Source: Actinomycetota bacterium (GTDB lineage Bacteria; Actinomycetota; Aquicultoria; Subteraquimicrobiales; UBA9087). Taken from it: DNA of 64,000 bases. Below the pieces are notes generated by a model, which searched no databases, was not told where the DNA came from, and was given only the letters and a program-made list of their open reading frames with translations. The stretch spans positions 12,109 through 76,108 of the forward strand of contig JASEEZ010000003.1 in the NCBI GenBank assembly GCA_030019215.1. Direction: 5' to 3'. A program made the position numbers and the translations under genes. Shown here one piece after another: positions 6,757 to 61,514 of this stretch. The number at the start of each line of letters is the position of its first letter. The stretch's first letter is position 1.

Positions 6757-8962
<2,206 letters not shown>

Positions 8963-9256: not shown

Positions 9257-9466
9257 AATATGTGCGGGGCAAGTCCCTCACCCTCCGCCATTTTTGCGAA
9301 GCAAAAATGTCCTGAGTGAATCGGAGTTTGGCAAAGATGAGCCGAAGGGCAACAGTCCTAAGCAGCCTCGGGGGACAAAACGGGAAATGGACAGTGAGGA
9401 GTCGGCAGTAAATAAATCTTAAATCTTTTTACTCCCGACTCTCCACTAATAAACTCCCAACTTATT

Positions 9467-9559
9467 GGAGAGGTGCCCGAGTGGTTGAAGGGAGCCGCCT
9501 GCTAAGCGGTTAAGCCGGGAAACTGGCTTCGAGGGTTCGAATCCCTCCCTCTCCGCCAC
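9467..9559 (+). tRNA. tRNA-Ser (anticodon GCT), type II, CCA encoded
   Basis: Acceptor GGAGAGG/CCTCTCC. Anticodon loop CTGCTAA. T-arm GAGGGTTCGAATCCCTC. Discriminator G followed by CCA. Confidence 0.85.
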
Positions 9560-9656
9560 ATTTTAGTTGGTAGTTAGGAGTCGGGAGTCGGTAGTAAATA
9601 AAATCTTTATAAATCTTTTCACTCCAGACTACCCACTAACAAACTCCCGACTAAAT

Positions 9657-9732
9657 GCGCTCGTGGCTCAACGGATAGAGCGACGGACTACGAATCCGTA
9701 GGTTGGGGGTTCGATTCCCTCCGAGCGCACCA
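9657..9732 (+). tRNA. tRNA-Arg (anticodon ACG), CCA encoded; the substrate of TadA
   Basis: GCGCTCG acceptor. Anticodon loop CTACGAA. T-arm GGGGGTTCGATTCCCTC. Then CGAGCGC, discriminator A and CCA. Confidence 0.85.
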
Positions 9733-9910
9733 TTCTTGCGTGAAGTTCTCTTTGAATGGTGTAACTGAGGCACTAGGGGGTATGGGGGATTTATCCCCCA
9801 TGATTTAGGGGGTGACAGCCCCGCCGCAGGCGGGGCGTCCTCAGGGGGACTTGTCCCCCTAGGAACGTCGCGGAGGCGACGAGGGGGTTCGATTCCCTCC
9901 GAGCGCACCA
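9733..9910 (+). other. GC-rich multi-hairpin spacer followed by a 27-nt duplicate of the tRNA-Arg 3' end (9884-9910)
   Basis: Three G5/C5 hairpins (GGGGGATTTATCCCCC, GCCCCGCCGCAGGCGGGGC, GGGGGACTTGTCCCCC) nested in a CTAGGGGG/CCCCCTAG outer stem. 'GGTTCGATTCCCTCCGAGCGCACCA' at 9884-9910 is identical to the 3' end of the tRNA-Arg at 9657-9732. Confidence 0.55.
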
Positions 9911-11308: not shown

Positions 11309-11351
11309 CTAGTTGGAAAATCTTTCTTTTTGATTCATAAACAGATATTTT

Positions 11352-11433
11352 TAGAGTGTAGAGTGGGGACGCTGTAGAGTAGAGTGGGGACGCTGTAGAG
11401 TGGGGACGCTGGTTGCAACTGTTGCAGTCGTCC
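11352..11433 (+). repeat. three tandem TAGAG(TAGAG)TGGGGACGCTG repeats ending in an imperfect GGGACG...CGTCCC hairpin (REP/subterminal-hairpin-like), directly 5' of the Y1 transposase gene
   Basis: Tandem copies read at 11352-11374, 11375-11395 and 11396-11411. Hairpin GGGACGCTGGTTGCAACTGTTGCAGTCGTCCC at 11404-11433. Confidence 0.6.
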
Positions 11434-11456
11434 CTTAATTCTGTTAAATTCAGCCT

Positions 11457-12446
11457 ATGCCCAGACAACCAAGACTTGAAGCCCCAGGACTTATCTATCA
11501 CGTAATTGCACGAGGAATAGAGAGAAGAGAGATCTTTACTGACAAGGATGATTACACCTTCTTTCTTACCTGTTTTGGCGAGATTTTAGTTGAGACTCAT
11601 GCAGATTGTCTTGCTTTCTCTCTTCTTCCCAATCACTTTCACCTTCTGTTTAGATCAGGGGAAATTCCTCTCTCAACCATTATGAGACGACTTCTCACCA
11701 GATATGCTTTATTCTTCAACCGAAGACACAGACGATCTGGTCATCTTTTCCAAAACCGCTACAAATCAATCATTTGTCAAGAAGACCCCTATCTTCTCGA
11801 GCTTGTGCGCTATATTCATCTTAATCCCATACGAGCAGGCATTACAAAATCCTTGAGTGAGCTTAATTCCTATTCCTATACAGGACATAGCGCTCTCTTA
11901 GGAAGAGCACGCTTTGGCTGGTACCTGCCAGAAGCTATTCTTGGCTACTTTGGCAAAACTCAAAAGAAAGCTATCAAGAAATACTTAGAATTCATTGGTG
12001 ATGGTCTATCAATGGGAACAAATCCCACATATACTGGCAACAGCCCTAAGAGCTCTTTTGGTTATCCAAAGAGATATCCCAAGAAAAAGCAGATCTCTGA
12101 TGGGAGAATCCTTGGAGATGAAGATTTTGTCCGCGCTCTACAGGAGTGTGAAGAGAAAGAAAAGGAGAAAGGGAGTAAAGTGAGTATAGAAGAGTTGACT
12201 AAACGAGTAGCTAAGACATATTCTTTGGAGCCTGAGCAAATTAGAGGGAGGGGGAGAGCAAAACAATTAAGAGAAGCGAGAACTTTAGTAGCTTACGTTG
12301 CCACTACTTACCTAGGTTTTTCTTTTGCCGAAATAGCTCGTTACCTGAAAGTACATCGCTCAACATCAGCTAGAATGTTAGAGCGAGGCAAAGAGATTGC
12401 AAAGGGTATCGATGCTAAGCAGTGGATAATAGCAAAGGAGAAGTAA
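11457..12446 (+). mobile_element. IS200/IS605-type (Y1, HUH) transposase domain fused to a DnaA-C-terminal-like HTH domain (RAYT-like)
   Basis: 329 aa. N-terminus 'LIYHVIARGIERREIF...LLPNHFHLLF...FQNRY' (HUH plus catalytic Tyr, the Transposase_17 pattern). C-terminus 'QLREARTLVAYVATTYLGFSFAEIARYLKVHRSTSARMLERG' is DnaA_C-like. It is flanked by REP-like repeats. Confidence 0.7.
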
Positions 12447-12535
12447 TGCAACAAATACAACGAACGTCCCTTATCCCTTTTATCCCTTCAACGAACGTCC
12501 CTTATCCCTCTTATCCCTTATAGTTGCAAAGATTT
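12447..12535 (+). repeat. two direct CAACGAACGTCCCTTATCCCT(Y)TTATCCCTT repeats bracketed by TGCAAC...GTTGCAA, 3' of the Y1 transposase gene; CGTCCC is inverted relative to the upstream GGGACG repeats
   Basis: Direct repeats read at 12458-12489 and 12490-12521. TTGCAA motifs at both ends mirror the GTTGCAAC of the upstream hairpin. Confidence 0.55.
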
Positions 12536-12587
12536 ATTATTTTTCCATCAAAGTCGCGGCGATAACCACCAGAAAAGGTGAGTGTAA

Positions 12588-16682: not shown

Positions 16683-17398
16683 GTCCAACCGAGGAACTGG
16701 TCAAAGCAAGGGACCTTGTCAAGATCTATCGGCTGGAGGGGGTGGAGGTTCATGCGCTCAGGGGTGTTGCCTTCGATATAAGATGCGGAGAATTCGTTTC
16801 TATAATGGGGCCCTCCGGCTCGGGCAAATCCACCCTGATGCACATAATCGGTTGTCTCGATAGACCCACCTCCGGTTCAGTCCTCATCGATGGGCAGGAG
16901 ACGAAGGAGCTCACCGACAACGAGCTGGCGGCAATAAGGAACAAAAAGATAGGTTTCGTCTTTCAAACCTTCAATTTACTTCCTCGCATGAGTGCCCTGA
17001 AGAATGTGGAGCTACCTCTCATCTATGCCGGGTTTGGCCTCGGCGAGAGGGCGAGAAGGGCTAAGGAGACGCTCGAGGCAGTGGGCCTGGGAGAGCGCAT
17101 CAATCACCGGCCATCCCAACTTTCAGGGGGACAGCAGCAGAGGGTTGCCATCGCCCGGGCTCTGGTGAACGACCCCTCGCTCATTCTGGCCGATGAGCCC
17201 ACGGGGAATCTCGATTCGAAATCGGGTGCGGAGGTGATGTCCATCCTTGAGGGGTTGCACGACCAGGGAAGGACAATAATCCTCGTCACTCACGAGCTCT
17301 ACGTGGCCGAACACGCTCAGCGGATAATCCGCATCCTTGATGGGGAGATAGTCTCCGACGAGTGGGTCGAAAACTGTCGTTCCTTGGGGAGGCGCTGA
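16679..17398 (+). CDS. ABC transporter ATP-binding protein, MacB/LolD family
   Basis: Walker A 'GPSGSGKST'. Signature '[15 protein letters not shown]'. Walker B '[12 protein letters not shown]'. Confidence 0.85.
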
Positions 17399-18603
17399 TG
17401 GATATCCTGGAAAGCTTCCGGCTGGCTTTGGGAGGCCTGGCGGCCAACAAAATGCGCTCGGCCTTGACCATGCTCGGCGTCATCATCGGCGTGTCCGCCG
17501 TCATTCTTCTGGTCTCCATCGGTAGCGGCGTCAAGGCGGACATCTCTCGAGAGATAATGGGCCTTGGTTCGAATGTGACCATGGTCCTGCCGGGGAAAAT
17601 AGAGATGCATCCGGGTGCCGGTCAGACCGGCGGGTCCCTGGGGTTGGTCAACAAGCTTGCCCTCGACCACGTCGAGGCCCTCAAGAGGGAGGGAGCTCAT
17701 ATCAAGGAAGCCCTGCCCATCCTCAGTAGTGCAGCTTCGATGAGATACACCAATCTTTCAAGAACGGTCGATGTGGTGGGCACCGCTCCAGAGTACCCGG
17801 CCGTTAGGAACTTTCCGGTGGCCGAGGGAAGGTTCTTCTCCGCTGGGGAGGTGGGTGGCCTGAGGAGGGTGTGTGTCCTCGGGCAAACCGTGGCCGAAGA
17901 TTTCTTTGGTGACAGCAATCCGGTTGGGGAGAGAATCAGTCTTAGTGACCAGAAGTTTACCGTCATTGGGGTGATGACCGAAAAGGGCGGCGGGGCCATG
18001 GGGATAAACCTCGACGACCAGGTCTTCGTTCCCGTCACGGTGGCCCAAAATCTCTTCGGGACGGAGAATCTCAGTCTCATTTTCGTGGAAGCGGCCAGCC
18101 AGGCCGACGTCGATCTGGCGATGGTTGAGGCGAAGAGGATCCTGGCGAGGAGACTGGATGAAAACGACTTCACTGTCCTGGCTCAAGAGGAACTCCTGGG
18201 CATCCTGCAAACCGTGGTGGGGACATTGACGTTGATGCTCGGTGGCATCGCCAGCATCTCTCTGTTGGTTGGCGGGATTGGCATAATGAACATTATGCTG
18301 GTTTCGGTGACCGAGAGAACGAGGGAGATCGGCATAAGGAAAGCGGTCGGGGCTAAGACCTATGACATCTCCATTCAGTTCGTCATTGAGGCGACGACCC
18401 TGAGTGTTATCGGAGGGACGGTGGGTATAATCCTTGGCGCACTCGGTTCCCTGGTGGCAAGGAGCTTCTTGCCCAGCCAGATCACGGCTTGGTCGGTTGT
18501 CCTCGCCTTTTTCTTCGCGGCGGGGGTGGGTATCTTCTTCGGGGTTTATCCGGCCTACAAGGCATCGCATCTCGATCCCATCGAGGCCCTAAGATACGAA
18601 TAG
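17398..18603 (+). CDS. ABC transporter permease, MacB-type (periplasmic MacB_PCD plus FtsX-like 4TM domain)
   Basis: ATG overlaps the upstream stop (ATGA). N-terminal TM, large periplasmic domain, C-terminal FtsX-like TMs. Confidence 0.8.
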   Translation: MDILESFRLALGGLAANKMRSALTMLGVIIGVSAVILLVSIGSGVKADISREIMGLGSNVTMVLPGKIEMHPGAGQTGGSLGLVNKLALDHVEALKREGAHIKEALPILSSAASMRYTNLSRTVDVVGTAPEYPAVRNFPVAEGRFFSAGEVGGLRRVCVLGQTVAEDFFGDSNPVGERISLSDQKFTVIGVMTEKGGGAMGINLDDQVFVPVTVAQNLFGTENLSLIFVEAASQADVDLAMVEAKRILARRLDENDFTVLAQEELLGILQTVVGTLTLMLGGIASISLLVGGIGIMNIMLVSVTERTREIGIRKAVGAKTYDISIQFVIEATTLSVIGGTVGIILGALGSLVARSFLPSQITAWSVVLAFFFAAGVGIFFGVYPAYKASHLDPIEALRYE

Positions 18604-19883: not shown

Positions 19884-21632
19884 GTGTCTTACATCTCTCT
19901 GTATAGAAAATATCGTCCTCAGACTTTTGGGGAAGTCGTTGGCCAGACCCACATCACTCAGACCCTGGCCAACGCGGTCAAGCAGAATCGCTTCTCCCAT
20001 GCCTATCTCTTTGCCGGACCCCGAGGAACGGGAAAGACAACCACCGCCAGAATCTTTGCCAAGGCACTCAACTGTGCCAAGGGGCCGACTCCCACCCCTT
20101 GCAATGAATGTGGAATCTGTTTGCAGATAATCGGGGGAAACTCCATCGACGTTCTGGAGATAGATGCCGCCTCCAACCGGGGCATAGATGAGATCAGGGA
20201 TCTAAGGGAAAAGATCCGCTTCACCCCGACGGAGGCTCGATACAAGATGTATATAATAGACGAAGTTCACATGCTTACCCCCGAGGCCTTTAACGCTCTC
20301 TTGAAGACGCTGGAGGAACCGCCTGAATGCGTAGTCTTCGTCCTGGCGACGACGGAACCTCATAAGGTTCTCCCCACGATCCTCTCTCGCTGTCAACGCT
20401 TTGATTTCAGGCGTATCCCGATTTCGGATGCGGTGGGATACCTCCACCAGATTGCGAAGGCCGAGGGAATAGTCATCGACGAGACTGTTCTTCCCTTGAT
20501 TGCCAGGCAGGCTCAAGGCTCCTTGAGAGACGCCATTGGGGTTCTGGAGCAGTTGTCCTCCTTTGCCGGTGAGAAGATCGGCCTGGATGAGGTTATCTCC
20601 CTTCTGGGCATGGTCGAAATTGAACTCCTGTTCGAGATCGTGGATATAGTGAGCAGGAGGGATACGGCCGGCGCCCTTTTCTTCGTGGAGAGGTTGATGG
20701 GGAGCGCGAGAGACATCCGGCAGTTCACGAAGGAACTCATAGACCACCTCAGAAATCTCTTCGTCATCCGGAGCACCGATGAACCGGCGGGGATGATAGA
20801 TGCTACCCCTGATGCCCTGGCCAGGATGGAGGCCCAGGCCTGCTCTTTCCAGCCATCCGAGATAATGAGATTCATGGATATTCTGACGGAAACTCACGGC
20901 GAGATGCGCTGGAGTCCAGATGCCAAGCTTCTCCTGGAGATGGCCCTGGTCAAGATGACAAAGCCGGAGGTGGATGCGTCTCTTGATGGGTTGCTGTATA
21001 GGATCGATGAGCTAGAGAGAAAGATCGAGGGACGAGGGACGAGGGACGAAAGTCAGAAGATAAAGAAGTTAGAGGCGAAAGAAATGGGGGAGGTGCACGA
21101 GGTTGAAGAGGTAAAAGAGGGAGAAGGCGCGAAGAAGGGGAAGGTGGAAGCGGTAAAGGGTACAGCGGGTGGAAAAAGAGATGAAGCGACACCCAGCCAG
21201 CAACCAGTTATCGGAAAGCAGGCTACAGGTCAAAAAATAGATATTGCTAGGGTGAGAAGAGCCTGGCCGGTGATTTTGAATCAGGTTAAAGAGAAGAAGA
21301 TATCCACTTACGCCCTCCTTCTGGAGTGCCAACCCTCCTCGGTAACGGAGAAGACCATCGTCCTGGAGTTCAGCGAGAGGGCCTCCTTTCATTTGCAGGA
21401 GATGGAAAAATCTCGCAATTTGAAGGTGCTCTTGCAATCTTTGAAAAAGGTATTGGGCATGGATGTGGATGTCGAGTGCACTTTGAGAGAGGATGAGGGA
21501 CCGAAGTCTCGGGAGACATCCCTCCGGGAAGAAAAGTTAACCGAGGAGCCGGTCGAGCCCCATATCGTCAAGCTGGTTCAGGATAGTTTCGGAGCAGAGA
21601 TAATCGAGGAAGTTGAATTCACAGAAGACTGA
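19884..21632 (+). CDS. dnaX: DNA polymerase III subunit gamma/tau
   Basis: GTG start. 'YRKYRPQTFGEVVGQTHI', Walker A 'GPRGTGKTT', and clamp-loader sensor motifs. Low-complexity acidic linker. Confidence 0.9.
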   Translation: MSYISLYRKYRPQTFGEVVGQTHITQTLANAVKQNRFSHAYLFAGPRGTGKTTTARIFAKALNCAKGPTPTPCNECGICLQIIGGNSIDVLEIDAASNRGIDEIRDLREKIRFTPTEARYKMYIIDEVHMLTPEAFNALLKTLEEPPECVVFVLATTEPHKVLPTILSRCQRFDFRRIPISDAVGYLHQIAKAEGIVIDETVLPLIARQAQGSLRDAIGVLEQLSSFAGEKIGLDEVISLLGMVEIELLFEIVDIVSRRDTAGALFFVERLMGSARDIRQFTKELIDHLRNLFVIRSTDEPAGMIDATPDALARMEAQACSFQPSEIMRFMDILTETHGEMRWSPDAKLLLEMALVKMTKPEVDASLDGLLYRIDELERKIEGRGTRDESQKIKKLEAKEMGEVHEVEEVKEGEGAKKGKVEAVKGTAGGKRDEATPSQQPVIGKQATGQKIDIARVRRAWPVILNQVKEKKISTYALLLECQPSSVTEKTIVLEFSERASFHLQEMEKSRNLKVLLQSLKKVLGMDVDVECTLREDEGPKSRETSLREEKLTEEPVEPHIVKLVQDSFGAEIIEEVEFTED

Positions 21633-21954
21633 AGACCAGCGGCCAGAGGTCAGGGGTCAAGAGTCAGGGGGCACGGGTCAAGGGATAAAGAACCAGGGAC
21701 GAAGGGTGAGAGAAGCAAAGAACGAAGGGTGAGAGAAATATAGGAACAGGGGGATTAACTTCCTGGTTTCCTAGCTTCCCGGGTTTCCTTGTTTTCATCC
21801 GACAGCCGACATCCATCATCCGACGAGGAATTTTCTCTAAGCTCTGAGCTCTTGGCTCTAAGCTAGCTGACAACTGTCATCTGTGAACTGTCAGCTATTT
21901 CGAATAACTAATAACGAATGGGCATGAAAATTTATGAGTAAAGGAGCGATCTCG

Positions 21955-30004: not shown

Positions 30005-30135
30005 GCTAAGGGACGAAGGGCGAAGGACGAGGGACGAAGATTTTTTCAGCCGTCATCCGACATCCGACGGCACAAGGCACAAGGCACCTGACATCCGTCA
30101 TCCGACAAGAACTAGAAATGAGTGGTGAAGAAAAA

Positions 30136-32144: not shown

Positions 32145-32186
32145 TTTCCTTTCCCCGTCGGAACCTAGACTCGGTGTTAAGTTAGG

Positions 32187-32436
32187 CTCTTCTCCAAAAA
32201 TGGTGGGCAGAAATTGCCAAGGCGAGATAAAGTGCGGAGAGAACTTTAGGATTCAAGGATCCAAGTGGTCAAGGGGTCTAGTGAAAGTCTTGCAAAATAA
32301 ATCACCTGAATCCTAGGACCCCAGAATCCTTGAATCCTTCTGTAAGAAATTTTTGCCTCCTCGAATCCTTTCATGAACCACTCTTTTGGATGAGAACGAG
32401 ATTAATAATTTTATCCACTAAAAATGGGGAAGAACC
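32187..32436. repeat. ~230 bp repeat element, copy 1 (termini CTCTTCTCCAAAAATGGTGGG ... TTATCCACTAAAAATGGGGAAGAACC; interior GAATCC word repeats)
   Basis: Aligns end-to-end with 58488-58691, with shared blocks 'GAGAACTTTAGGATTCA', 'CAAGGGGTC.AGTGAAA' and 'ACTCTTTTG'. It abuts the start of the helicase gene. Confidence 0.65.
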
Positions 32437-32457
32437 TTGAGTTATAATTTAAGAGGA

Positions 32458-37879: not shown

Positions 37880-37996
37880 TCCACTGGCCAGGAACCAGAG
37901 TTCAGGGGCCAGCCTTCAGCTACCAGTCACCAGGTACGAGGCACAAGGAACCAGGAACCAGGAACCAGGAACATCTGTCATCCGACAAGATCGTTT

Positions 37997-39016: not shown

Positions 39017-39077
39017 TCTCACCTTTTGCCACTCGTTCCGAGTTCCGTTATTAGGAATTAGTTATTCGAAATTCGTC

Positions 39078-39215
39078 TGTCAGCTTAGAGCTCGGAGTTT
39101 AGAGCTTAGAGAAAAATCTTTTGTCTCTACGCTCTCTGCTCCCTGCTCTCTGCTTTCCTCGTTATTCGTCCTTTCGCCCTTCGTCCCTGACCCCTGGCCT
39201 CTGTCAACCGTCAAC
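39078..39215. repeat. ~135 bp repeat element, copy A (CAGCTTAGAGCTCGGAG...CTCTACGCTCTCTGCTCCCTGCTCTCTGCTTTCCTCGTTATTCGTCC...CCTGGCCTCTGTCA)
   Basis: About 95% identical to the reverse complement of 54062-54200. The termini are shared with a diverged third copy at 61141-61380. Confidence 0.7.
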
Positions 39216-52961: not shown

Positions 52962-54046
52962 AGGTGACCTTCCCTCACATGGGAACGATAGATTCACTGC
53001 TTTCCGATCTCTTCACTCGCCTGGAGATCGATTTCCTCGTGCCCCCAAAGACCTCGACGAAGACGATAAGTTTGGGGGCGAGGTATGCCCCGGAGTTTGC
53101 CTGTTTTCCTCTTAAGGTCAACATCGGAAATCTTATCGAGGGACTGGATCTGGGAGCGGATACCGTGGCTATGGTTGGGGGGTTGGGTCCCTGTCGCTTT
53201 GGTTTCTATGCCGAGGTTCAAAATAGAGTCCTTCGCGATATTGGATACGATTTCGAGATGATCGTCCTGGAGCCGCCCGCCATCGGGATGAAGATTTTCC
53301 TGGAGAGATGTCGGAGGTTGGCGCCGAAGAAATCACTCTGGCAGATCTTCCAGGCGGTTAGGATTGGCTGGAAGAAGGCCGTCGCCGTTGACGAGGTGGA
53401 AAAGAGGGTCTTGCAGACCAGGGCTTTTGAGAGGAAAAAGGGTGATACCACAAGAGCTCATCGCAGGGCTCTGAAAGTTCTCAGCGAAGCTGTGACGGCG
53501 GAGGAAATTCGGTCTGCCCGCGAGGAGGCCCTGGCCATCATCGATTCCGTGGAGAGAAGGGAACAAGATTCTCTTCGGGTGGGCATAGTTGGTGAGTTTT
53601 ATATCCTCCTTGAACCTTTTGTGAATTTTGGCATCGAGGAGTATTTGGGGAACGAGGGTATTTATCTTGAGCGCTCGGTTTATCTGACGGATTGGCTCAA
53701 TCCCGGTGGGAAGAAACCGGTTTTTGGCACGACCAGGGAGAAGATCCATCACGCGGCCGAACCCTATCTCGCTCATTTCGTTGGCGGGGAAGGGCAGGAT
53801 ACCATCGGGCACATAGTGGAGTGGGCGCGGGAGGGCTTCGATGGAATAATTCACTTCCTCCCCTTTACCTGCATGCCGGAGATAATCGCCAAAAGTATTT
53901 TCCCCAAAATTGACAGGGAGCTGGATATTCCCATTCTCTCCCTCGTCATCGATGAGCAAACGGGAAGGGCCGGGGTCATCACCCGCCTGGAAGCTTTCAT
54001 CGATTTGATGAGGAACAAGAGAAAGAAACGGCTGGTGGCCAGCTGA
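52958..54046 (+). CDS. DUF2229 domain protein, second copy
   Basis: 'FPHMGTIDSLLSDLFTRLEIDFLVPPKTSTKTISLGARYAPEFACFPLKV'. Overlapping start/stop with the upstream DUF2229 gene. Confidence 0.65.
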   Translation: MKVTFPHMGTIDSLLSDLFTRLEIDFLVPPKTSTKTISLGARYAPEFACFPLKVNIGNLIEGLDLGADTVAMVGGLGPCRFGFYAEVQNRVLRDIGYDFEMIVLEPPAIGMKIFLERCRRLAPKKSLWQIFQAVRIGWKKAVAVDEVEKRVLQTRAFERKKGDTTRAHRRALKVLSEAVTAEEIRSAREEALAIIDSVERREQDSLRVGIVGEFYILLEPFVNFGIEEYLGNEGIYLERSVYLTDWLNPGGKKPVFGTTREKIHHAAEPYLAHFVGGEGQDTIGHIVEWAREGFDGIIHFLPFTCMPEIIAKSIFPKIDRELDIPILSLVIDEQTGRAGVITRLEAFIDLMRNKRKKRLVAS

Positions 54047-54061
54047 CAGATGCTGGGTGTC

Positions 54062-54200
54062 CAGAGGCCAGGGTTCAGGGACGAGGGACGAAGGACGAAT
54101 AACGAGGAAAGCAGAGAGCAGGGAGCAGAGAGCGTAGAGGCAAAAGATTTTTCTCTAAGCTCTAAGCTCCGAGCTCTAAGCTCCAAGGAACCAGGAACAA
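54062..54200. repeat. ~135 bp repeat element, copy B (inverted relative to copy A at 39078-39215)
   Basis: The reverse complement aligns at about 95% identity with 39078-39215. Confidence 0.7.
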
Positions 54201-54258
54201 GAAACCAATCATCCGACCTCCGTCATCCGACATCCGGCAGAGTGAGGAGGAAGAAAGA

Positions 54259-55667: not shown

Positions 55668-56576
55668 TTGGTGTTCAAGATCGTTAAAAAAGAAGAACTC
55701 ACCGCCGATGTTTACCTGATCGAGTTGGAAGCCCCCGACATTGCCAGGAAAGCACAGCCTGGTCAGTTCATCGTGCTTCGCATCGGCGAGCGAGGCGAGC
55801 GCATCCCTCTGACCATCGCCGATTTTGACCGGGCAAAAGGAACGATTTCCATCCTCTTTCTGGTGGTTGGTAAGTCCACCAGGTGGCTTTCCGATCTCCG
55901 GGCCGGGGATCACCTTGTTGATGTCAGCGGTCCACTGGGCAAACCGAGTGAGATAGAAAGGGTGGGGACCGTCCTTTGTGCTGGTGGTGGAGTGGGGATA
56001 GGTGCCATTCATCCAATTGCCCGAGCCTTTCGCGAGGCGGGCAACCGTGTCATCGTGGTCATGGGTTTCCGCAGCAAAGACCTCATCGTCTTCGAGGATG
56101 AGATGAGGGCAGTCTGCGACGAGTTTCATATCTGCACCGACGATGGTTCCCGCGGTTTTAAGGGTTTCGTAGCCCAGTTGGTCGACAAAATTCTTAAAGA
56201 AGACGAGGTCGATCTAGTCTATGCCATTGGCCCCACGATGATGATGCGCACCGTCTGTGATACCACTCGGCCTCACAGGATAAAAACTGTGGTTAGCCTG
56301 AACCCAGTTATGGTGGATGGTACGGGGATGTGTGGTTCTTGCCGGGTCTCGGTGGGTGGAAAGACTAAGTTCTGCTGTGTGGACGGCCCCGAGTTCGATG
56401 GCCAGCAGGTGGACTTTGACCTGCTCATGGCCAGACAAAAAATTTATCTAGAAGAAGAGAAACTATCGATGGAGCGATATGAAGCAAAAGGGGAAGGACG
56501 AAGGGCGAAGTCCGAAAGGCGAGTGAAGGACGAAAAGCGAAAAGCGGAGGGCGAGTGTCGAAAAGTGAAGAGTTGA
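55668..56576 (+). CDS. nfnA: NfnA/SudB-type ferredoxin-NADP+ reductase small subunit (FAD/NAD-binding, PyrK-like, [2Fe-2S]); its C-terminal ~30 aa are encoded by a GGACGAAGG-type repeat
   Basis: 'GQFIVLRIGERGERIPLTIA', 'LCAGGGVGIGAIHPIA', 'CGSCRV...C'. The tail 'AKGEGRRAKSERRVKDEKRKAEGECRKVKS' is translated from repeat DNA. Confidence 0.75.
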   Translation: MVFKIVKKEELTADVYLIELEAPDIARKAQPGQFIVLRIGERGERIPLTIADFDRAKGTISILFLVVGKSTRWLSDLRAGDHLVDVSGPLGKPSEIERVGTVLCAGGGVGIGAIHPIARAFREAGNRVIVVMGFRSKDLIVFEDEMRAVCDEFHICTDDGSRGFKGFVAQLVDKILKEDEVDLVYAIGPTMMMRTVCDTTRPHRIKTVVSLNPVMVDGTGMCGSCRVSVGGKTKFCCVDGPEFDGQQVDFDLLMARQKIYLEEEKLSMERYEAKGEGRRAKSERRVKDEKRKAEGECRKVKS

Positions 56577-56577
56577 A

Positions 56578-56964
56578 ATGAAAGATAGATTGGAAAATAA
56601 CGATATCTATCAAAAAGCAGTTGAAATATATAATAAATTTTTGGAAGAGGATTTGGATATTTTGAGGAGAGATTATTGCGGCCGCGAAGTTGGAAAACAG
56701 CTGATATGTAGTTTGGGTTCGATAAGTTCGAATATCGAAGAGGGTTATGGAAGAGGATTCGGTAAAGAGTATATATATTTTTTAAGGGTTGCTCGAGGGT
56801 CGGCGAGGGAAAGCAAAGGTTGGTATCAGCGAAGTAAAAAATTTCTTCCGCCTAAGATTATTGACCAAAGAGTAAAAGCATTGGATGAAATTATTTCTAT
56901 GTTGGTTGTGACTGTAAATAAACTGGAAACAAAAATTCGTCCTTCGTCCCTCGACCTTCCGTGA
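56578..56964 (+). CDS. four-helix-bundle protein (TIGR02436, 23S rRNA intervening-sequence protein family), low-GC insert between nfnA and nfnB
   Basis: 'VGKQLICSLGSISSNIEEGYGRGFGKEYIYFLRVARGSARESKGW' matches the family's GKQLxRSxxSIxxNIAEGYGR...ARGSxxE core. About 35% GC versus about 55% in the neighbours. Flanked by inverted GGACGAAGG / CCTTCGTCC repeats. Confidence 0.75.
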   Translation: MKDRLENNDIYQKAVEIYNKFLEEDLDILRRDYCGREVGKQLICSLGSISSNIEEGYGRGFGKEYIYFLRVARGSARESKGWYQRSKKFLPPKIIDQRVKALDEIISMLVVTVNKLETKIRPSSLDLP

Positions 56965-58407: not shown

Positions 58408-58487
58408 GCCCGCTGCTTGCTCAAGAAATCCGGGATATTTGTCGATAAATATTAAGACGTCTGGGACCATCTGGGTTAACAAATTTG

Positions 58488-58691
58488 ACTCTTCTCCAAA
58501 AATAGTGGGTGGAACAACTAGGTGCGATGAAGCCTAAAGAGAACTTTAGGATTCAGGGATTCTAGGGGCCAAGGGGTCAAGTGAAAAACACTTGAATCCT
58601 CGAATCCTTGAACCCTCGAACCCTTCTACGTGCAACTCTTTTGAGAAAAGAACAAGATTAAAAGTTTATCCACTAAAAATGGAGAAGAACC
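58488..58691. repeat. ~230 bp repeat element, copy 2 (same termini as 32187-32436)
   Basis: End-to-end alignment with copy 1. Sits directly upstream of the histidine kinase gene. Confidence 0.65.
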
Positions 58692-58720
58692 ATAAATTTG
58701 GATTATTATCGGGGTGAGAA

Positions 58721-60480
58721 ATGGATTTTGAGCCAGGAATGAGGCTGGGAATAGTCAGGAATGCGGCCAGAGTGCGGTGGCTGGTCATTGCCTACGTTCT
58801 TCTCTTTGTCTATTTTAACCCCACCCCACTGATAAAACTGCCCTTGGTTCTGGCGCTGATGGCCATGGCGGCCGCGTATAATCTCCTGGTTCATTTTGGC
58901 ATCTTTCCCTTTAAACTGACCGAAGGCGAAGGTCCAGGAGCGGTCTATGCCACGGTTTTAGGGGACATTGCGCTGGTCACTATGCTTATCGTGCTAACGG
59001 GCGGGGCCCATAGCCAGTTTTACTTTCTATATTTCCTCATTCTCCTTCTCGTGGCCGTCGCTTTCACCCTCCCCGTTGCCCTCGCTTTTACCCTTCTCAT
59101 CTCCACGATCTACTTTACCATTTACTCTTTGAGGCATCCTTTTCCCATGGAGTGGCTCAACGTCTCCTTGGGCCTGATCCTGGTTTGGTTTGCCATGACC
59201 CTGGCTTGTTACTATCTAGTTGGTGAGATCAGAAGGCAATCGGAGAGCTGCCGAATTGCCTACGGCGATCTCCAAAGTCACCATGAAGAGGTGGAGCGCC
59301 TTTCCCAAAAACTGGGAAGGGCTCTTACCGATTTGTCCACCATCTATAAACTCAGCAGGCAGATGGTGGCCAAGACCAACCCGCGAGAACTTTTGGATAT
59401 GGCGGTGCGGATGTGTAGGGAGGTTCTCGGTGCGGAATCGGTCTCCATAATGCTTCTGGGTAAAGACAGAGGAGAGCTCACCATTGAAGCAGCTCAAGGT
59501 CTAAGTGAGGAGTTGGTTAAGAATACTCGGGTGAAGGTCGGTGAGCGTGTCGCCGGCTGGGTGGTCAAAGAGGGCAAACCCTTACTGCTCGATCAAGATC
59601 TCAGCGGAATGGAGTTTAAGAAATTCCACAAGAGAGCGTCGGTCAAGTCCTCTTTGTGTGTCCCTTTGGTTGTGGGGGAGAGCCGATCGGGGCATTGAAC
59701 GTCACGAACAAAAAGTCGGGAGAGGAATTTACTCGAGATGAGCTGGAGCTACTCACCTCCTTCGCCGAGCACGTGGCAATAGTTTTGCAGAGAAATGTTC
59801 TCCTTTCAGAATTGGAGGAGAACCGGAGCATTCAGGAGCGCTTGACGAAAAAGATAATCGATGCGCAGGAGGAGGAGAGAAAGAGAATCGCTCTGGCTAT
59901 CCACGATAGTGTGGTTCAACTGATCGCCAGTACTCTTTTAAGACTCGACGCCTGCGAAGCACACCTTAGTGGCAATGATCGAGCAAGGGCGGAGCTTTAT
60001 AAGGCAAAAGAGGTGCTCGATGACAGTTTGGGTGAGATGAGAGGGCTCATCTCGGATCTTCGTCCAGTTCTCCTCGACGATCTTGGTCTCATTCCCGCTC
60101 TGCGCAAGACTGCGGAGGAGTGGGGAAAGGAAATGGGTATAACGACGGAGATCACGCTCGAGGGGCCTCACCCCGATTTGCCAAAGTCGGCGGAGACGGC
60201 CCTGTTCCGGATTGTCCAGGAGGCCTTGGCCAATGTGAAAAACCACGCCAAGGCCACCCGGATGGATTTGAAGATAACATCTGCAGATGGGCGACTGGAA
60301 ATCAAAGTGAAAGACAATGGTGTAGGTTTCGATTTTGAAAAAATCATCGCCAAATCCCTTACCAGCAAGAACATCGGTTTTGAGTCCATGCAGGAGAGAG
60401 CGAAGATGTGCGAAGGCAGCCTGGAGATAAATAGCGCCCCTGGGAAGGGAACGGAGGTCAAAGTTGTCGTCCCGCTTTGA
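58721..60480 (+). pseudogene. membrane GAF sensor histidine kinase (HisKA_3/NarL-type) split by a frameshift in a G5 run at 59674-59678 (inside the GAF domain)
   Basis: Frame 2 gives '...SSLCVPLVVGESRSGH*'. Frame 1 continues 'GGEPIGALNVTNKKSGEEF...' and then 'IHDSVVQLIAS' (HisKA_3) and HATPase_c. Adding one G restores 'CVPLVVGGEPIGALNV'. Confidence 0.7.
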
Positions 60481-60498
60481 GAGCGATAGGAGTGTTTA

Positions 60499-61130
60499 AT
60501 GGAGAAGATAAGGGTTCTTATCGCTGATGATCATACTCTGGTGCGGGAGGGCCTGCGGGCGATATTGGAACTGGCCGAAGATGTTGAAGTCGTCGGCGAG
60601 GCGAAGGATGGGGAAGAAGCTGTTCGGAAGGCACGCGAGCTGACCCCCGACATAGTCTTGATGGATGTAAAGATGCCGAATATGGATGGGTTGCAGGCGA
60701 CCCGGCTGATCAAGGAGGAGCTACCCCAGGTGGATGTAGTTATGCTGACGATGTACGCCGACGACGAGTACGCGCTGGAGGCTATCAAGGGTGGAGCCAC
60801 CGGATACATTTTGAAGAACACCCCCGGGATACCTTGCTCGACATCCTCCGCAGGATACATCGGGGTGAGGCCTTCGTCCAGCCTGAAGTCACCAAGGGGC
60901 TGCTTGGGGAAATCGTCAAACCCACTTCCAGGGAGAAGGTTTTAACCGATCGGGAAAGGGAAATTCTACAGCTAATGGCCGATGGGCTGACCAACAAGGA
61001 GATTGCCAAGAGGCTCTTCGTCGGTCTGGAGACCGTCAAGAGCCATGCGAGAAACATCTTTGCCAAGCTCGAGGTCTCCGATAGAGCGCAGGCCGTCGCC
61101 AAAGGCTTGAGAGAGCGCCTGGTCAAGTAA
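60499..61130 (+). pseudogene. NarL/LuxR-family response regulator split by a frameshift in a C5 run at 60821-60825
   Basis: The REC domain ('IADDHTLVREGL...VLMDVKMPNMDG') ends 'GYILKNTP' then goes out of frame. The LuxR HTH ('LTDREREILQLMADGLTNKEIAKRLFVGLETVKSH') follows in the +2 frame. One extra C restores 'KNTPRDTLLDILRRIH'. Confidence 0.7.
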
Positions 61131-61140
61131 CTGACCAGCA

Positions 61141-61380
61141 AAATCAGCTTAGAGCTCAGAGCACGGAGCTAGTGAGTTGATAGTCGTCAGTCGGGAGTCG
61201 TCAGTTTTTAGCCCCCAGCTTCCAGTCGCCAGTTACCAGTCCTCTTTGGTTTTGCTGAAAGCTGGCAGCTGGAGGCTGGAGGCTGTTATTTTTACTCCCC
61301 ACTCCCGACTTTCTATCCACGCTGGTGGCTGGAAGCTGGTAGCTGGCCCCTGGCCTCTGTCATTTGTTATCCCTCATTTG
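61141..61380. repeat. diverged third member of the CAGCTTAGAGCTC...CCTGGCCTCTGTCA element family with a different word-repeat interior (AGTCGTCAGTCGGGAGTCG; GCTGGCAGCTGGAGGCTGG)
   Basis: Shares both termini with the copies at 39078 and 54062. The interior is replaced by other oligo-word tandem repeats. Confidence 0.5.
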
Positions 61381-61514
61381 AGGGATATTTTTTTACCCCT
61401 TTTGAGTAAGAAAAAATCTCCCTTTGGTCTATTGAGTCCACCCGTACATCTCCCGATATAAAAAATGGAAAGAGCGTTAATTTATTCACATGCCTGATAG
61501 GCAGGTGGAAAGCG

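Follow-up and report, generated by a model that had tools for sequence, protein, structure and literature searches.

The 64,000-nt stretch analyzed here (the window) belongs to contig JASEEZ010000003.1 of an uncultured Actinomycetota bacterium of the UBA9087 lineage (assembly GCA_030019215.1), and its spacers contain a family of short repeats built from seven-nucleotide words. Copy 1 (39082-39203, plus strand) lies between a radical SAM gene and a NUDIX gene, copy 2 (54062-54182, minus strand) between a DUF2229 gene and a BcrAD_BadFG gene, and copy 3 (61145-61362, plus strand) after the gene of a GerE-type regulator. A fourth relative, copy 4 (21644-21925, minus strand), occupies the spacer between dnaX and ybaB. 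The first three blocks follow gene ends, as a preliminary description of this DNA had stated for copies 1 and 2: they start 65, 15 and 14 nt past the stop codons of the radical SAM (39016), DUF2229 (54046) and GerE-type regulator (61130) genes, respectively. The genes on both sides of copies 1 and 2 are co-directional and on the plus strand, and the two copies are in opposite orientation to each other. Our reading of this genome covers about 66-70 kb, i.e. the window and the contig L096, which extends past its end.

Organization of the repeat blocks

Copies 1 and 2 had been recognized as an inverted pair of about 135 bp. The pair is real, 95% identical and in opposite orientation, but the shared block measures 122 nt and not 135. 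It is covered by a single blastn match (39082-39203 against 54182-54062, 95.08% identity), and a repeat search of the window returned two pairs of arms, 39082-39180 with 54084-54182 (99 nt, 95% complementary) and 39173-39203 with 54062-54092 (31 nt, 90% complementary). On the strand of copy 1, the block is composed of AGAGCTN words, a loop, GCTCTCT words, TTCGTCC words and the right end CCCCTGGCCTCTG. Its tandem-word interior, already noticed, was recovered by Tandem Repeats Finder (TRF) as period-7 arrays of AGCTTAG, GCTCTCT and TTCGTCC(C) in copy 1 and as their complements in copy 2. The TTCGTCC words and the right end, which make up the 3' third of the block, have no pairing partner within it. 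Additional modules stand to the left of copy 1 (39047-39081, plus strand), namely GTTATTAG/ATTCGAAAT words followed by CTGTCAG; they are absent from copy 2 and common to copy 4 and to spacers of the related contig L097. On the BcrAD_BadFG side, copy 2 is flanked by further word arrays detected by TRF (54186-54236, plus strand), with three AGGAACC units and then four CATCCGA units.

Copy 3 keeps both termini around a different interior, as first reported, although its limits are 61145-61362 instead of 61141-61380. Its left end is AGCTTAGAGCTCAGAG, and CAGCTTAGAGCTCGGAG is found at 61145 with one mismatch. In the whole window, the left-end motif CAGCTTAGAGCTCAGAG has five matches at no more than three mismatches, all within copies 1 to 3, where 0.17 would be expected. 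At the right end, CCTGGCCTCTGTCA occurs exactly at 39193 and 61349 only; read directly, the identity reaches 16 nt, and this longer sequence, CCCCTGGCCTCTGTCA, is exact in copies 1 and 3 only. Between its ends, copy 3 is filled with nested AGTCGGG/ACTCCCG and CCAGCTT/GCTGGAG word hairpins, an interior unrelated to those of copies 1 and 2. Copy 4 is colinear with copy 1, with extra modules inside: on the minus strand one reads GTTATT/ATTCG words, GACAG words, AGAGC words, CCTTCGTCCC and finally CCCCTGACCTCTGGCC, in the same order as in copy 1. Its arm is solo and lacks a hairpin partner.

A protein-coding nature of the repeats was considered and rejected, since the open reading frames (ORFs) crossing copies 2 and 3 matched no Pfam family. 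The ORFs that run through word spacers, such as those at 53851-54186, 54050-310 and 61177-61461, are likewise without a Pfam match and are probably not genes.

The copies resemble miniature inverted-repeat transposable elements (MITEs) in being short (122-220 nt), non-coding and intergenic, in occurring in both orientations with a near-identical pair, and in having ends common to four elements. One could assume that a DDE transposase moves copies 1 to 3 by cut-and-paste, as in a classical MITE family. However, these ends are poor inverted repeats, as only 8 of 12 positions agree between TAGAGCTCGGAG and the reverse complement of CCCTGGCCTCTG, and the long inverted repeat is internal, forming the hairpin, and not terminal. 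We read the flanks of copies 1 to 4 directly (TGTC/TCAA, TTGG/GACA, AATC/TCAT and AGCT/GCCG) and found no target-site duplication at any of them. The interiors are not constant, and the ends are absent or replaced at the orthologous sites of relatives, as detailed below. The non-autonomous element suggested in the preliminary description, if taken as a discrete transposon, is not supported by these observations either. We also scanned metagenomes with a 23-nt core pattern. No further copy 1/2 block extending beyond 33 nt into copy 1 was obtained with this pattern, which is too word-like as a query; the 78 contigs retrieved (GC 0.36-0.74) all carry unrelated (GCTCYCT)n arrays, six of them being cyanobacterial by their HIP1 content. 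Altogether, the classical MITE reading is largely refuted and appears extremely unlikely.

Heptamer words in the spacers of the window

The family had been described as modular, made of tandem words, present in both orientations and different from random intergenic DNA, and all this is supported by the TRF arrays and recurring blocks of the window. TRF gave 61 rows, mostly of period 7-9 and inside spacers. Such arrays occupy most of the longer spacers of the lineage; in the window, 15 of the 43 spacers that measure 40 nt or more contain arrays of period 7, and tRNA spacers and 3' regions are among them. The autocorrelation of intergenic DNA peaks at lags 7, 14 and 21 (0.318, 0.312 and 0.301, against a background of about 0.26), whereas coding DNA displays the 3-nt codon period only. 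Moreover, 77 nine-mers are common to at least three spacers, whereas shuffled sequences give 3.3 and coding controls of matched size 16.

At least 12 different words make up the pool, among them AGAGCTN, GCTCTCT, GGGACGA, CATCCGA, AGTCGGG and CCAGCTT, and many spacers contain the same words on both strands. GGGACGA(AGG) recurs in six spacers, CATCCGACA and AGCTTAGAGC in four each, AGTCGGGAG in three and the loop motif AAATCTTTT in five. The sequence CATCCGAC occurs eight times in spacers and once in coding DNA. The repeat family first described merges into a vocabulary of heptamer arrays spread over the genome and does not consist of copies of one discrete element.

Three observations complete this picture. 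A CGAGGGA array of 3.4 units lies within the dnaX reading frame (21026-21049); as three whole units amount to 21 nt, the frame is kept, and word arrays are thus not strictly barred from genes. All five intergenic copies of CATCCGACA (21796, 30054, 30099, 37979 and 54224) are on the plus strand, 10-130 nt before plus-strand start codons. Two genes that lack an obvious Shine-Dalgarno sequence, at 30118 and 37997, have GTCATCCGACAAGA in common in their upstream regions, and this stretch is kept in the closely related strain L087; it may be, with CATCCGACA, a strand-specific motif of 5' untranslated regions. Lastly, a second dispersed repeat is present in direct orientation at 32179-32443 and 58481-58698, about 80% identical over four collinear pieces, with a related block in L097 at about 7850-7960. 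Both copies are directly upstream of plus-strand genes (a helicase-like gene at 32437 and a GAF sensor gene at 58721) and each includes a hairpin of AGGATTC words.

Folding of the word arrays

The core of copies 1 and 2 is made of a 5' arm (AGAGCTN)4 and a 3' arm (NNGCTCT)4 separated by the loop AAAAATCTTTTG. Since only the AGAGC and GCTCT pentamers are complementary, the stem is a beaded one, in which 5-bp helices are split by 2x2 mismatches with a 7-nt period. RNA folding, a check proposed from the outset, gave -35 kcal/mol for the core of copy 1 (39082-39154, z -5.45) and -39 kcal/mol for that of copy 2 (54110-54182, z -5.53), with z values of about -5.5 on either strand. The spacer of copy 3 (61131-61420) reached -125.8 kcal/mol (z -8.15). 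Analogous beaded hairpins are found in two tRNA spacers (9258-9466 and 9559-9656) and in the regions 32244-32342 and 58544-58626; in these long imperfect hairpins, complementary arrays flank an A/T-rich loop. The z values of beaded hairpins range from -3.5 to -5.5 in the window as well as in the contigs L097, L005 and L004 presented below. Pairing as a universal trait of such arrays was rejected, because a complementary array is close by in only 5 of the 78 cases from metagenomes and the arm of copy 4 is solo.

The hairpins could be selected RNA-level signals acting after gene ends, as terminators, Rho-entry sites, insulators or stabilizers of mRNA 3' ends. The stability of the folds and the start of the blocks 14-65 nt past stop codons are in line with such a role, and REP (repetitive extragenic palindromic) hairpins do stabilize upstream mRNA. 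In addition, direct reading shows that copy 1 is followed on the plus strand by about 180 nt of C-rich and G-poor sequence, as at Rho-dependent terminators. However, copies 1 and 2 are inverted relative to their co-directional genes, copy 2 is followed by CCAAGGAACC, and no T run is present after either stem. A terminator scan retained no site within the blocks of copies 1 and 2. The canonical terminators of this genome are GC-rich with T runs and unlike the word hairpins. One of them stands after copy 3, separate from the word block (61369-61394, plus strand, ATCCCTCA-TTTG-AGGGAT and a T run); it was tested in L097 and is kept there, while the adjoining word block is not. We thus rejected an intrinsic terminator. 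Fold energies of the plus and minus strands, compared over 20 spacers, did not reveal any consistent asymmetry, and a strand-specific functional RNA, for which G-U pairs would create such a bias, is therefore unsupported. A search of the window with Rfam 15 returned only tRNAs and the signal recognition particle RNA, and relaxed searches of copies 1 and 3 gave chance-level matches of at most 24 bits; in the absence of a match at the gathering score, a known RNA family was rejected. In relatives, the corresponding spacers are short (32 nt, devoid of any array, for copy 1 and 87 nt for copy 2). A selected signal at the RNA level is on this basis distinctly improbable, and the structured terminator/insulator family of the preliminary description is not borne out.

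The same sites in relatives

Orthologous sites in relatives were reached via protein matches. In relatives with about 70-77% protein identity, the spacers at these sites measure 25-87 nt and lack words. Thus, L088, whose radical SAM protein is 77% identical and whose gene order is the same, has spacers of 25 and 32 nt where the window has 117 nt (with ACCAGGA words) and 346 nt (with copy 1), and L094 (DUF2229 protein 69% identical) has 87 nt at the site of copy 2. A lag-7 signal is present in L097 (0.381) and L005 (0.321) and is missing from the outgroups L088 and L094. We also observed that L088 (902-2065) and L089, two otherwise identical outgroup contigs, differ by an IS605 OrfB/TnpB gene present in one of them, which is an insertion polymorphism.

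Closer relatives contain words, but not the same ones. L087, whose coding DNA is 99% identical to that of the window, does not have copy 1 and diverges completely within a few bases of the radical SAM stop codon; in its spacer upstream of the radical SAM gene the edges are kept and the central word block is different. The site of copy 2 in L093 (93% protein identity) holds GTCAAGG and AGTCGGGAG words instead. In the dnaX-ybaB spacer of the UBA9087 metagenome-assembled genome (MAG), the half proximal to ybaB is kept and the words proximal to dnaX are replaced. At the site of copy 3 in L097/L098 (GCA_022729455.1), coding DNA is 87% identical and the stretch from the terminator to the start codon 87.4% identical, whereas the word block reaches 69.9%, no better than shuffled sequences (74 +/- 5.6). 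From these alignments, the word DNA shows no purifying selection at the sequence level, while the adjoining regulatory DNA is kept.

Words also appear at non-orthologous loci. Between DHODB-type and GltD-type genes, L097 contains a copy-1-like composite (2089-2323), in which an arm identical to copy 2 along 35 nt is fused to CCAGCTT words, which are words of copy 3 in the window. This composite and the replaced blocks indicate that modules are permuted among spacers between genomes.

A DNA-pattern scan with the 5' arm retrieved two contigs of the UBA9087 MAG, L005 (an uncultured Actinomycetota MAG), a 'Planctomycetia' MAG (L004) and one coding chance match. L005 and L004 display the same hairpin design; in L004 (2900-2980) it reads (AGAGCNN)n, an A-rich loop and (GCTCTNN)n, as in copy 1. 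Hairpins of related heptamer words were also seen in the metagenome contigs L021, L032, L010 and L062, which, like L004, come from unrelated genomes of different composition, and in L021 and L032 a canonical terminator follows the word hairpin.

The number of units also changes. The (AACCAGG)n array that precedes the radical SAM gene (37945-37972, plus strand) has four units in the window and three in the Logan assembly of run SRR23186780. Over 11 kb, the Logan contigs encoding identical proteins differ from the window by this missing unit alone (37952-37966), which lies 25 nt upstream of the start codon. The latter contigs break at copy 1 (39072/39144) and copy 2 (54120/54153), as expected of repeated DNA, and the lesson for annotation is that word spacers break short-read assemblies.

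This polymorphism raises the possibility that the arrays are contingency loci, in which the number of units upstream of genes would switch or tune expression by phase variation. Repeats of 7 bp are reported to determine phase variation according to their number in Haemophilus influenzae (PMC12721329), and the CATCCGA words of the window lie just before start codons, always on the sense strand. However, arrays as widespread as these, in tRNA spacers and 3' regions too, do not point to such switches, nor does their location next to housekeeping genes as in dnaX-ybaB, and strains differ by whole blocks beyond unit numbers. We consider this explanation very improbable.

Comparison with known repeat systems and proposed origin

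Heptamer repeats are over-represented in bacterial intergenic DNA, for which polymerase slippage has been proposed and no function shown (PMC4679880, PMC4692102). The short tandemly repeated repetitive (STRR) heptanucleotides of heterocystous cyanobacteria are known to us as cited in these two papers (Mazel 1990, Mrazek 2007). As far as they are presented there, they share with the repeats of the window the tandem 7-nt units, several word families per genome, an intergenic location (the dnaX array excepted here), a lineage-specific abundance, as revealed here by the lag-7 signal of L097 and L005 and not of L088 and L094, a variability between close relatives, illustrated by the 7-nt indel, and the lack of a known function. 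They differ in that the host here is an uncultured Actinomycetota lineage, in which arrays are short (2-6 units), many words are concatenated in each spacer, complementary arrays are often paired as long beaded hairpins, and duplication affects composite blocks longer than 100 nt. Two other described cases, TAACTGA in marine Beggiatoaceae (PMC4679880) and GGGAATC/GGGGAYT in Xanthomonas and Nostoc (PMC4692102), are also heptamer direct repeats in spacers. Some of them stand directly before start codons in one orientation, like CATCCGA here, inverted array pairs were noted in Xanthomonas (PMC4692102), and the arrays vary between close relatives at the same locus. In contrast to these systems, where one word dominates, at least a dozen are used here, and a G-quadruplex potential is not a general feature.

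We propose that copies 1 to 4 are overlapping mosaics drawn from a lineage-specific pool of STRR-like heptanucleotide arrays, which are changed by slippage and copied between spacers, and we estimate the probability of this reading at about 0.55. It is supported by the 7-nt period, the words recurring among spacers, the beaded hairpins, the composite of L097 and the breaks of the Logan contigs. In addition, arrays gain or lose whole units of 7 nt, genomes with 87-99% identity in the flanking genes have their word blocks replaced, and arrays are absent from distant relatives with the same gene order. The arrays would grow and shrink by replication slippage. Ectopic recombination, template switches at words common to two spacers or a single-strand process depending on the hairpins would copy blocks from spacer to spacer, and copies 1 and 2 would result from one recent copying of the 122-bp block. 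As copies 1 and 2 stand between co-directional genes, the hairpins are probably transcribed and may then act in a REP-like manner on mRNA 3'-end stability or read-through; as no selection is visible on the word sequence, such an effect would be incidental rather than selected. The repeats represent a kind of bacterial repeat that is known although little understood, and not a new transposon or terminator. What is new is the occurrence of STRR-like heptamers in a new phylum, with an organization that is unusual in being multi-word, nested-hairpin and mosaic.

Several points weigh against this proposal. The replacement of whole blocks between 99%-identical strains exceeds what slippage alone would do, which leaves the copying step to be deduced. 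The presence of both end modules in the same order in four elements hints at a recognition of the ends. The 7-nt indel is a difference between two assemblies, even if an artefact is unlikely in an array of 28 nt, and copy numbers rest on the 66-70 kb read. Finally, a gene for a Y1 HUH transposase is located within the same window.

Few simple repeats are as over-represented in bacterial intergenic DNA as tandem heptanucleotides, which are used for typing cyanobacterial strains. This lineage may be a favorable test case. Relatives with 85-99% identical coding DNA are public (UBA9087 DNCG01, GCA_022729455.1, SRR23186780 and SRR22388020), distant relatives of the same gene order and lacking arrays allow a direct comparison of filled and short sites, and word blocks are replaced while adjoining regulatory DNA is kept. 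With these relatives available, the question of how such repeats arise becomes testable.

A Y1 transposase gene as a candidate mobilizer

The gene at 11457-12446 (plus strand, MDI6891674.1) encodes a TIRYT-type Y1 HUH transposase. Its product matches Pfam Y1_Tnp (E 1.2e-13) followed by Bac_DnaA_C, the DnaA C-terminal helix-turn-helix, and the NCBIfam family REP_Tyr_transpos (E 2.3e-18) with 66.5 bits, under the 80-bit cut-off of the family. Both the HUH motif (H60-F-H62) and the tyrosine (Tyr102 in RYKS) are intact. The gene is flanked by 24-nt inverted repeats (11403-11426 and 12447-12470, 79% complementary) with GGGGACGC, which corresponds to 7 of the 8 positions of GGGGWSAS. It has tandem repeats of its own, upstream at 11358-11411 (three GTAGAGTGGGGACGCT units, 16-mers) and downstream at 12458-12519 (two 31-nt units). 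TIRYT genes are known to be flanked by inverted repeats, and GGGGWSAS is the consensus of TIRtrons (PMC3733652, PMC6006769). Judged by its domains, motifs and flanking repeats, the region 11340-12540 has the arrangement of a TIRtron of subclass 2.1 (PMC3733652, PMC6006769). This resemblance concerns a neighboring gene and not copies 1 to 4: the inverted repeats of this gene were not found in these copies or in any other spacer examined.

The chief alternative to our proposal comes from this gene. The word hairpins could be non-autonomous elements of the REPIN or TIR type, moved as single-stranded hairpins at the replication fork by this transposase or a paralogue. The intact catalytic motifs, the REP_Tyr_transpos match and the near-consensus GGGGACGC in the inverted repeats argue for it, the more so as the inverted repeats next to TIRYT genes belong to dispersed families in some genomes (PMC3733652). 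The density of GGGACG in spacers is five times that in coding DNA, and word blocks act as if they were mobile between strains. The repeats also share with REP, BIME and REPIN sequences and their RAYT transposases (PMC2817692, PMC3116915, PMC3733652) an extragenic location, often between co-transcribed genes and in both orientations, hairpin formation, a mosaic structure and a variability between strains, along with a RAYT-related Y1 gene in the window. On the other hand, they are made of 7-nt words in place of a 20-40 nt palindrome with a fixed GTAG or CGTC tag; GTAGAG does occur at the hairpin apex, but as part of TAGAG words. The Y1 gene is not flanked by dispersed sequences: its flanks have no BLAST match of more than 11 nt elsewhere in the window or in seven loci from heptamer-word genomes, so that they were rejected as a source of the dispersed words and the gene is a candidate mobilizer and not a demonstrated one. 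The NCBIfam score is below its cut-off, and Quentin et al. found no REP-like sequences next to genes of this subclass (PMC6006769). Moreover, the cumulative GC skew of the window rises almost throughout, and copies 1 and 2 are thus probably on one replication arm; given their opposite orientation, a strictly strand-specific insertion of the IS608 type would not fit. Lastly, many arrays, such as copy 4 and most of those in metagenomes, are solo and have no hairpin partner. Mobilization by this transposase is accordingly possible but doubtful. An exact look-up of the protein retrieved no other contig, and its sequence gave no match to solved structures.

A second gene lies among the words themselves. 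A four-helix-bundle ORF of the PF05635/TIGR02436 family (56578-56964), which we take to be the '23S rRNA intervening sequence protein' and Avd-like, is located in the loop of a word hairpin (56488-56960, plus strand), with GGACGAA words at 56488-56557 and TTCGTCC words at 56936-56960. The TTCGTCC words are those of the 3' module of copies 1 and 2, and 19 nt of the downstream arm recur in that module of copy 2. In L097, the orthologous spacer contains the copy-1-like composite at 2089-2323 in place of the ORF. A bolder hypothesis would be that word hairpins are the cargo of an active dedicated system rewriting spacers at the pace of strain divergence, either through single-strand hairpin cleavage and ligation by the TIRYT-type Y1 enzyme, which would excise word blocks from one spacer and insert them into another, or through another carrier resembling 23S rRNA intervening sequences related to the ORF of 56488-56960. 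We regard it as unlikely. If true, it would provide the first mechanism for the STRR-type heptamers, known since 1990 and still unexplained. With the TIRYT gene at hand, a link between the repeats and single-strand HUH enzymes can be tested.

Other features of the window

Past the end of the window, at about 64.6-65.7 kb of its numbering, L096 (5978-7072) encodes a protein with HTH_32 and weak Mu-transposase C-terminal domains. The gene has the same position in L097 and has probably not moved recently.

The last 28 nt of tRNA-Arg(ACG) (9705-9732) are exactly repeated 178 nt downstream (9883-9910), with GC-rich hairpins in between; this repeat may be an integration-site remnant or a tRNA-like fragment. 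The region of about 1.1 kb between an ABC ATPase gene and an MFS gene (17395-18490) is coding-like, with no words and a GC content of about 0.57-0.59, and has no spanning ORF on the plus strand, its only ORF being one of 158 aa on the minus strand (17697-18173); it is possibly a frameshifted gene. Finally, at 58721-61130, a GAF/HisKA_3 sensor kinase and the GerE-type response regulator are each split into two ORFs (325 + 274 aa and 148 + 98 aa, respectively). The same kinase and regulator are intact in L097 (3846-6245, 585 aa and 210 aa), and the splits are frameshifts, due to pseudogenes or to assembly errors.

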